Shown here: positions 6,331 through 9,194 of the stretch, piece after piece
How the letters are laid out: each line of letters opens with the position of its first letter
Position numbering within the stretch: position 1 is the first letter of the stretch
From: a virus
Taxonomy: Duplodnaviria > Heunggongvirae > Uroviricota > Caudoviricetes
Virus record (IMG/VR): IMGVR_UViG_2526164630_000024
Direction: 5' to 3' (one strand)
DNA: 9,194 nucleotides
Notes under the pieces: generated by a model
What the model saw: the letters and a program-made list of their open reading frames with translations, nothing else
Databases searched by the model: none
Told to the model about the DNA's origin: nothing
Translations under genes and position numbers: made by a program

Positions 6331-9194
6331 GTGGGTAAAGGGGGCGGCAAGGGGCACACGCCGGTAGAGGCAAAGGACAATCTTAAGTCCACGCAGATGA
6401 TGAGCGTGATTGATGCGATTGGTGAGGGACCGATAGAAGGCCCGGTGAAGGGACTGCAGAGTATCCTGGTGAACAAAACCCCGCTGACGGACACGGACGG
6501 TAATCCCGTGATACACGGTGTGACTGCGGTCTGGCGCGCCGGGGAGCAGGAGCAGACACCACCGGAAGGCTTTGAGTCCTCCGGAGCTGAAACCGCACTG
6601 GGCGTGGAAGTGACGAAGGCAAAGCCGGTGACGCGCACCATTACGTCCGCGAACATTGACCGCCTGCGGGTCACCTTCGGGGTGCAGTCACTGTTGGAGA
6701 CCACCTCAAAGGGCGACCGTAATCCCTCTTCTGTCCGACTGCTGATTCAGTTGCAGCGTAACGGTAACTGGGTGACGGAAAAGGATGTCACCATTAACGG
6801 CAAGACCACCTCGCAGTTCCTGGCGTCGGTGATTCTGGATAATCTGCCGCCCCGGCCCTTTAACATCCGGATGGTCAGGGAGACGGCGGACAGCACCACG
6901 GACCAGCTGCAGAATAAGACGCTGTGGTCGTCATACACCGAAATCATCGATGTGAAACAGTGCTACCCGAACACGGCCATTGTGGGGCTGCAGGTGGATG
7001 CGGAGCAGTTTGGCGGTCAGCAGATGACGGTGAACTACCATATCCGCGGTCGCATCATCCAGGTACCGTCAAACTATGACCCGGAAAAACGCACGTACAG
7101 CGGCATCTGGGACGGCAGCCTGAAACCGGCATACAGCAACAACCCGGCCTGGTGCCTGTGGGACATGCTGACTCACCCGCGCTACGGCATGGGAAAACGT
7201 CTGGGGGCGGCAGACGTGGACAAATGGGCGCTGTATGCCATCGGGCAGTACTGCGACCAGACGGTCCCGATGGTTCGGGGCACAGAGCCGCGGATGTACC
7301 TTTAATGCGTACCTGTCACAACAGCGTAAGGCGTGGGACGTTCTCAGTGATTTCTGCTCGGCGATGCGCTGTATGCCGGTATGGAACGGCCAGACGCTGA
7401 CGTTCGTTCAGGACCGCCCGTCGGATGTGGTGTGGCCGTACACCAACTGCGATGTGGTGGTGGATGATAACGGCGTGGGGTTCCGCTACAGCTTCAGCGC
7501 CCTGAAGGACCGCCACACGGCGGTGGAGGTGAATTACACCGACCCGCAGAACGGCTGGCAGACCTCCACGGAACTGGTGGAAGACCCGGAAGCCATACTG
7601 CGCTACGGGCGCAACCTGCTGAAGATGGATGCGTTCGGTTGCACCAGTCGCGGTCAGGCCCACCGTGCCGGGCTGTGGGTGATAAAGACCGGACTGCTGG
7701 AAACGCAGACGGTGGATTTCACGCTCGGGTCACAGGGGCTGCGTCACACACCCGGTGACATTATTGAAATCTGTGATAACGACTATGCCGGGACCCTGAC
7801 CGGCGGACGTATCCTGTCCATCGATGCCGCCAGCCGCACCCTGACACTGGACCGTGAGGTGACCCTGCCGGAGACAGGTGCCGCCACGGTGAACCTGATT
7901 AACGGCAGCGGTAAGCCGGTGAGCGTGGCCATCACTGCACACCCCGCGCCGGACCGGATACAGGTCAGTACCCTGCCGGATGGCGTGGAGACATACGGTG
8001 TGTGGGGACTCTCCCTGCCGTCACTGCGCCGTCGCCTGTTCCGCTGTGTCTCCATCCGGGAAAACACGGACGGCACCTTTGCCATCACGGCGGTGCAGCA
8101 CGTACCGGAAAAAGAAGCCATCGTGGATAACGGGGCCAGCTTTGAGCCGCAGTCAGGCACCCTGAACAGCGTCATCCCACCGGCAGTGCAGCACCTGACG
8201 GTGGAGGTGAGCGCAGCTGACAGCCAGTATCTGGCACAGGCGAAATGGGACACGCCGCGGGTGGTGAAGGGCGTGCACTTCAGTCTGCGCCTGACCAGCG
8301 GAAGCGGTCAGACAGCCGTCTGGTGACCACCGCCATCACCGCGGATACAGAGCACCGTTTCAGCGGCCTGCCGCCCGGGGAATACACCCTGACGGTCAGG
8401 GCAATTAACAGCTATGGCCAGCAGGGCGAACCCGCCACCACCACCTTCCGGATTAACGCACCAGCAAAACCCGCCACCATTGAACTGACACCGGGCTATT
8501 TTCAGATAACAGCAGTCCCGAAACTGCCATGTATGACCCGACGGTACAGTTTGAGTTCTGGTTTTCGGAGACAAAAATCGCAGACACATCTCAGGTGGAA
8601 ACCTCTGCCCGTTATCTGGGGACCGGCCGTCAGTGGAGTGTATCCGGCCCGCACATTAAGCCCGGGAAGGATTTCTGGTTTTACGTGCGCAGCGTCAACC
8701 TGGTGGGGAAATCTGCTTTTGTGGAAGCCAGTGGCCGGGCCAGCAATGATGCAGAAGGGTATCTGGAACTGTTCCGGGAAAAAATAGGAAAACGCATCTG
8801 GCACAGGCGCTGTGGGAGAGATAGACAACAGCCAGCTGAGGACGAAATGGCGGAAATGAAGACCACCATCACAGAAACCCGCAATGAAATCACACAGACG
8901 GTCAGTAAAACGCTGGAAGACCAGAGCGCCACCATTCAGCAGATACAGCGCGTGCTAGAAGGACACAAATGATGACCTGGCTGCGCTGTACATGCTGAAG
9001 GTTCAAAAAACGAAAGACGGCATTCCCTATGTGGCCGGGATTGGTGCAGGGATTGAGGATACTGATGGCCAGCCACTGAGCAACATACTGCTGCTGGCTG
9101 ACCGTATCGCGATGATAAATCCGGAGAGCGGCAACAGCACGCCGTTATTTGTGGCGCAGGGGAATCAGCTGTTCATGAACGACGTGTTCCTGAA
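6331..9194 (+). pseudogene. J: Tail tip host-specificity protein J (central tail fibre), 3' partial at window edge, reading frame switches at least 5 times
   Basis: GTG at 6331 preceded by AGGAGAGGGGGA. Translation starts VGKGGGKGHTPVEAKDNLKSTQMMSVIDAIGEGPIEGPVKGL, matching lambda gpJ (MGKGSSKGHTPREAKDNLKSTQLLSVIDAISEGPIEGPVDGL). The lambda-J-like sequence then jumps frame at about 7288-7300, 8306-8312, 8520-8530, within 8790-8840 and at 8967-8973, and runs off the window end (...[16 protein letters not shown]). Confidence 0.88.

Follow-up and report, generated by a model that had tools for sequence, protein, structure and literature searches.

Frame breaks in the lambda-type J gene of a prophage tail module from Escherichia coli DEC11C are best explained as consensus errors

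Introduction

Defective prophages are frequent in enterohaemorrhagic E. coli, and a tail gene that is interrupted by several frame breaks on a prophage contig raises the question of whether the gene is disrupted in the organism or only in the deposited sequence. The window analysed here, 9,194 nt in length, is the entire contig AIGX01000080.1 (GCA_000250155.2) of a draft assembly of E. coli DEC11C (O45:H2) dating from 2012, and the DEC11C proteins encoded on it carry the accessions EHX00733-EHX00748. The AIGX record corresponds to DEC 11C, a strain of the DECA collection of serotype O45:H2 that is stx1a-positive (PMC4959244). A preliminary description of the window had reported that the host-specificity gene J reads cleanly from its GTG codon at 6331 over its first third and then changes frame at least five times, which implied a multiple disruption of this particular gene. 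Here, the J frame breaks were mapped at the base level and compared with the rest of the contig and with related genomes.

Results

Organisation of the tail module

The plus strand of the window carried a lambdoid prophage tail module in the order V'-G-T-H-M-L-K-I-J', with tail-module genes only. The window aligned end to end with intact modules from prophages of enterohaemorrhagic E. coli, with 97.1% identity over 9,194 nt to the locus of O157:H7 PV15-279 (L001), which was used as the main intact reference. The 3' end of the major tail gene V was located at 1..280 (residues about 159-250), and a tblastn search with the L001 V protein as query left frame 3 for frame 2 near position 59, where a 1-bp deletion lies in an A4 run. 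The tail assembly chaperone genes G and T (294..1049), whose called fragments matched the Pfam families Phage_TAC_2 and Phage_tail_T, contained 1-bp deletions at 654 and 755. The tape-measure gene H (1093..3738) contained six 1-bp indels, at 1418 (G7 to G6), 1859, 2189 (G5 to G6), 2279 (T3 to T4), 2996 and 3047, which split it into at least five ORFs; the repaired H was 881 residues long with no internal stop. The following genes M (3735-4064), L (4064-4762), K (4773-5516) and I (5513-6091), also on the plus strand, were open, with a self-compensating +1/-1 pair at 4709/4720 in L relative to most references, and a 1-bp deletion at 6090 in an A-run at or after the I stop codon.

Two features of the module were noted beside its gene content. 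The G-T programmed-frameshift heptamer GGGAAAG at 659 was preceded, at a distance of 5 nt, by the deletion at 654, and the deletions at 654 and 755 jointly shifted reading from the G frame to the T frame, which is probably a coincidence. The spacer between I and J (6092-6330, 240 bp) held a 39-residue ORF (6136-6255) and had a GC content of 0.52-0.53 in 500-bp windows, compared with about 0.59-0.61 on each side. The 39-residue ORF matched no Pfam and no Rfam family and was also called, at the corresponding position (3080-3199), on a contig from a sister draft assembly (L012, AIFK01000034.1). An Rfam scan of the whole window returned no RNA family.

The gene J was found at the end of the module, after H-M-L-K-I, as determined by tblastn with reference proteins and by the annotation of collinear loci. 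Its residues 1-322 matched residues 1-323 of the lambda "Tip attachment protein J" (8iyk_J) with an E-value of 1.9e-177 in a phmmer search of PDB, and the four called J fragments presented, in the expected order, the Pfam series FNIII-A_GpJ, Phage-tail_3, Ig_J, Ig_J_second and Phage_Tail_Tip. From its sequence and position, the gene is an ordinary lambda-type J of the lambda gpJ family, as had been proposed before. The window ended at about residue 956 of 1,158, and the receptor-binding C-terminus (Ig_GpJ_C) lies beyond the contig, as the preliminary description had recognised.

Mapping of the J frame breaks

The J breaks were mapped by base-level alignment to intact prophage tail modules and by tblastn with an intact J of 1,158 residues. 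As deposited, the J frame was discontinuous, with ten 1-bp indels in five sites or clusters, namely deletions at 7268, 7273, 7278, 8310, 8524, 8793, 8818 and 8836 and insertions at 7297 and 8956, and it was continuous once these were repaired. The intact first segment (6331..7267) read in frame 1 up to residue 312 or so; the tblastn match followed residues 1-323 in that frame, from the start GTG (6331) as far as 7296 and with 98.5% identity to intact J, which agrees with the clean start described previously. The first break, earlier placed at 7288-7300, resolved into a cluster (7268..7297) of three 1-bp deletions at 7268, 7273 and 7278 followed by an inserted T at 7297. The second segment (7298..8310) read in frame 2, covered residues about 324-661 with the Phage-tail_3 and Ig_J domains, and was ended by a single 1-bp deletion at 8307-8310, where a break at 8306-8312 had been proposed. 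A look-up of the mechanically defined ORF 7235-8326 in this part of the gene found nothing, because the gene caller had used a later start.

The third segment (8311..8524), in frame 1, was ended by a single deletion at 8524-8526, inside the interval 8520-8530 suggested earlier, at a junction between two alleles (B and A). The fourth segment (8525..8956), nominally in frame 3, contained the region 8790-8840 for which the frame assignment had been held least certain; three deletions were present there (8793, 8818 and 8836), and since they total -3, the frame returned after them. This segment was ended by the T inserted at 8956, which generates a stop codon at 8970-8972 and accounts for the break formerly placed at 8967-8973. 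The fifth segment (8957..9194) read in frame 1 to about residue 956. The peptide blocks quoted in the preliminary description were recovered in the same order, with [13 protein letters not shown] at 8532-8570 (frame 3, fourth segment), [11 protein letters not shown] at 9013-9045 (frame 1) and [15 protein letters not shown] at 9148-9192 (frame 1).

The same breaks across the whole contig

Alignment of the whole window with L001 identified 22 indels, all of exactly 1 bp (16 deletions and 6 insertions). Twelve of them were located outside J, in V, G, T, H and L and just past the stop codon of I; these had been missed in the preliminary description. The frame-break phenomenon is contig-wide and not J-specific, and on this point the earlier reading of J as a specifically disrupted gene did not hold, while the gene type, the break positions and the missing C-terminus did. 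Essentially the same set of indels was obtained against six further intact references (seven in all); for the complete O45:H2 genome FWSEC0003, the comparison covered its best copy (L008), which gave the same indels. When all 22 positions were repaired, G, H, M, L, K, I and J' were open throughout with no internal stop, and the repaired J' differed from the L001 J protein (WP_001303164.1) at 9 of 956 residues. Neither the alignment nor the repaired translations revealed any larger deletion, insertion sequence or nonsense codon in the window.

The indels were accompanied by very few substitutions. Within positions 1-3000, 8 indels were counted against about 2 private substitutions, and J had 10 private indels against 2 private substitutions, the opposite ratio being expected from natural decay. 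The region 7000-7400 was 99.0% identical to the J gene of O145:H28 RM13514, with four gap positions and no substitution over 401 nt, and 8880-9194 was identical to the best-matching complete genomes apart from the inserted T at 8956 (best match 99.7%; 260 records at 99% or more), and no complete genome matched it at 100%. J did not show the combination of private substitutions, nonsense codons and varied indel sizes by which a pseudogene is recognised.

Occurrence of the breaks in other genomes

For the J stretches tested, no gap-free match was found among 5,426 complete E. coli genomes, and 9 of the 10 J indels fell in stretches that lack a gap-free match in any of these genomes. The J fragments of 324, 283 and 147 residues were each found on AIGX01000080.1 only, in a search of about 15 billion proteins, and the 147-residue fragment formed a singleton cluster. 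Exact-pattern scans for a 45-nt stretch over the 7268-7297 cluster were empty in the IMG/VR viral contigs and in the GTDB species-representative genomes, which indicates that this cluster is common to no relative among them. The J disruptions were not common to the related genomes searched; the disruptions of an inherited pseudogene would be expected to be shared with them.

Some other frameshifts of the module recur elsewhere. The poly-G tract of H (window 1412-1418) was G7 in the intact references, G5 in one locus (L011) and G6 in the window and in ten other loci (L018-L027, at about 6312), including the complete chromosomes CP027675.1, CP027544.1, CP034936.1 and CP169408.1; in the better-assembled G6 loci, H was split into 124 + 718 residues, and most of the module was otherwise intact. 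Either slippage truly occurs at this tract as a hot spot or a sequencing error recurs there, and the window indel at 1418 may be real since it recurs in other assemblies, complete chromosomes included. A J frameshift different from those of the window, splitting the protein into 391 + 783 residues, was observed on the sister draft contig L012 (at 4383) and in L009 and L010 (at about 14396-14444), the last two from assemblies GCA_036871935.1 and GCA_036872215.1 with chromosome-sized contigs of about 5.5 Mb. This split may be a genuine lineage-specific disruption of J.

Allele composition, indel placement and repeat context

Between 8481 and 8900, the real J alleles fell into two clean families, and the window passed back and forth between them at almost all variable sites. 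Under a leave-one-out copying model, the window needed 18 switches in this interval, with no private mismatch, compared with 0-3 switches for the real alleles; outside it, with the same panel, the real alleles were as mosaic as the window. Four deletions lay exactly at multi-base differences between the families (TTGCGG/TGACCA at 8524, CT/AC at 8793, GCT/CAG at 8818 and TTGC/TGAA at 8836), and the best place for 8480-9194 in complete genomes reached 97.1% identity. Over the contig, 7 of the 20 indels scored fell on columns polymorphic among the references, against 6% expected (p = 1e-4), a statistic that comes from a small panel of 7 loci and is somewhat inflated by the tendency of aligners to slide gaps onto mismatch columns; 10 of the 20 were located 3 nt or less from a polymorphic column. 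The coincidence of indels with allele-differing columns points to a mixed pile-up of reads rather than to independent platform error.

Five other indels were in homopolymers whose longer form has 4-7 bases (A4 at 59, G7 at 1418, G6 at 2189, T4 at 2279 and A4 at 6090). The indels at 755, 1859, 7297 and 8956 lay neither in homopolymers nor near polymorphic sites, and the one at 654, also away from such sites, was in a two-base CC run only.

The repeat context was then considered. In related complete genomes, the J stretch had a median of 3 matching places per genome and up to 14, figures that describe relatives of DEC11C. The references kept 100% identity throughout the final 300 bp of the contig; precisely at the 3' end, identity fell to 75% or homology was lost, and at such a position the extension of a repeat by an assembler would come to a halt. 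No divergence point in the 7-locus panel fell at the 5' end. At the 3' end point (window 9194 / L001 10001), real prophage J genes change sharply from a conserved N-terminal part of ~955 residues to C-terminal modules that diverge, which marks the exchange boundary of the receptor-binding part of J.

Discussion

The J frame breaks are very probably consensus errors that arose from a collapsed multi-copy prophage region in the draft assembly, together with some homopolymer errors. Multiple copies in relatives, a contig whose 3' end lies at the divergence point and a chimaeric consensus with errors at variant sites were all found. Enterohaemorrhagic strains like DEC11C would carry several near-identical copies of the tail module, and the assembler may have piled reads from more than one prophage copy into a single consensus. 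Wherever adjacent substitutions distinguish the copies, the alternative bases would be set in neighbouring gapped columns when the reads are aligned, and a majority vote could then drop or duplicate a base. The outcome would be a consensus that switches from one allele to another and has 1-bp indels at the variant sites. Additional 1-bp errors in homopolymer runs would be typical of pyrosequencing, the platform presumed for DEC11C. Contemporaneous STEC genomes from the same centre were obtained with 454 Titanium paired ends and Celera 6.0 (PMC3491183), a circumstantial indication for DEC11C. The sister DECA draft contig AIFK01000034.1 (5,059 bp), which carries the same module, presented five 1-bp indels at other positions.

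This explanation has to be weighed against several others. It could be that the contig comes from a cryptic DEC11C lambdoid prophage whose tail genes, J included, were inactivated by real frameshifts. The recurrence of some J and H frameshifts in complete genomes speaks for such pseudogenes, in particular the G6 tract of H in ten other loci and the 391 + 783 split of J in L009, L010 and L012, and RefSeq annotates frameshifted tail genes in complete genomes, such as K in RM13514. However, all 22 indels of the window are of 1 bp and come with no nonsense mutation, larger deletion or IS insertion, the private indels of J outnumber its private substitutions by 10 to 2, and the J breaks were found neither in the 5,426 complete genomes, for the stretches tested, nor in other assemblies. 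Chimeric alleles with deletions exactly at the allele differences have, moreover, no mutational explanation, and we consider a genuine pseudogene unlikely. The narrower claim that DEC11C truly carries a tail module with about twenty private 1-bp indels and almost no substitutions is very hard to credit; if true, indels of such density would imply an unusual local indel-generating process acting on prophage DNA, for example error-prone repair or targeted slippage. Mutagenesis by a diversity-generating retroelement was considered and rejected: the called genes all belong to the tail module, with no match to a reverse-transcriptase domain, and these elements yield adenine-directed substitutions and not indels.

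A different possibility is that the mosaic is real, produced by gene conversion among prophages, and that the indels alone are platform errors on a single-copy sequence. Real J alleles are indeed strongly mosaic in 7251-8480, with 5-19 switches in the leave-one-out model, and the five indels in homopolymers of at least 4 bases lie away from polymorphism. It does not account for the 18 switches in 420 bp, where every real allele has 0-3, nor for the coincidence of the indels with allele-differing columns, and the complete genomes hold no such allele; we regard a real recombinant as highly improbable. Programmed recoding of J at the breaks, whether by ribosomal frameshifting or by transcriptional slippage, might be suggested by the neighbouring G-T pair, which uses a programmed -1 frameshift at GGGAAAG. 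Ten shifts of both signs in one gene, at mostly non-slippery sequences and with no Rfam element in the window, argue against it, and because the homologues are all continuous ORFs with identical flanking sequence, programmed recoding is effectively refuted and has next to no probability. Consensus errors in a collapsed repeat thus remain the best explanation of the J frame breaks, which we do not take as a real biological feature.

The window resembles lambda J (PDB 8IYK, 9E7M) and its homologues in EHEC lambdoid prophages in the V-G-T-H-M-L-K-I-J order and in the Pfam domains; unlike them, its J contains ten 1-bp indels and, since the contig stops short of them, lacks the last ~200 residues, which form the receptor-binding domain. 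Pyrosequencing-era draft assemblies are known for a class of artefact that comprises consensus errors in collapsed repeats and indels in homopolymers. Like these artefacts, the window is a short contig composed entirely of multi-copy prophage sequence that ends at a divergence point, with 1-bp indels at homopolymers and at paralogue-variable sites and a chimeric consensus, although several of its indels fit neither subclass. As in the defective lambdoid prophages of O157:H7 Sakai and its relatives, the tail genes of the window are untranslatable as annotated. The real defects of Sakai-type prophages are mostly IS insertions, larger deletions and occasional lineage-shared frameshifts; to our knowledge, they do not take the form of dense private 1-bp indels without substitutions.

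The real DEC11C J genes are most likely intact, ordinary lambda-type genes for the tail tip, with its role in host specificity, and, the underlying J being of this ordinary type, the locus holds nothing new for phage biology. Its significance is one of caution, since short contigs of multi-copy prophage genes in early drafts can mimic heavily decayed genes. If such contigs are scored as pseudogenes, estimates of prophage decay would be inflated and inferences about host range misled.
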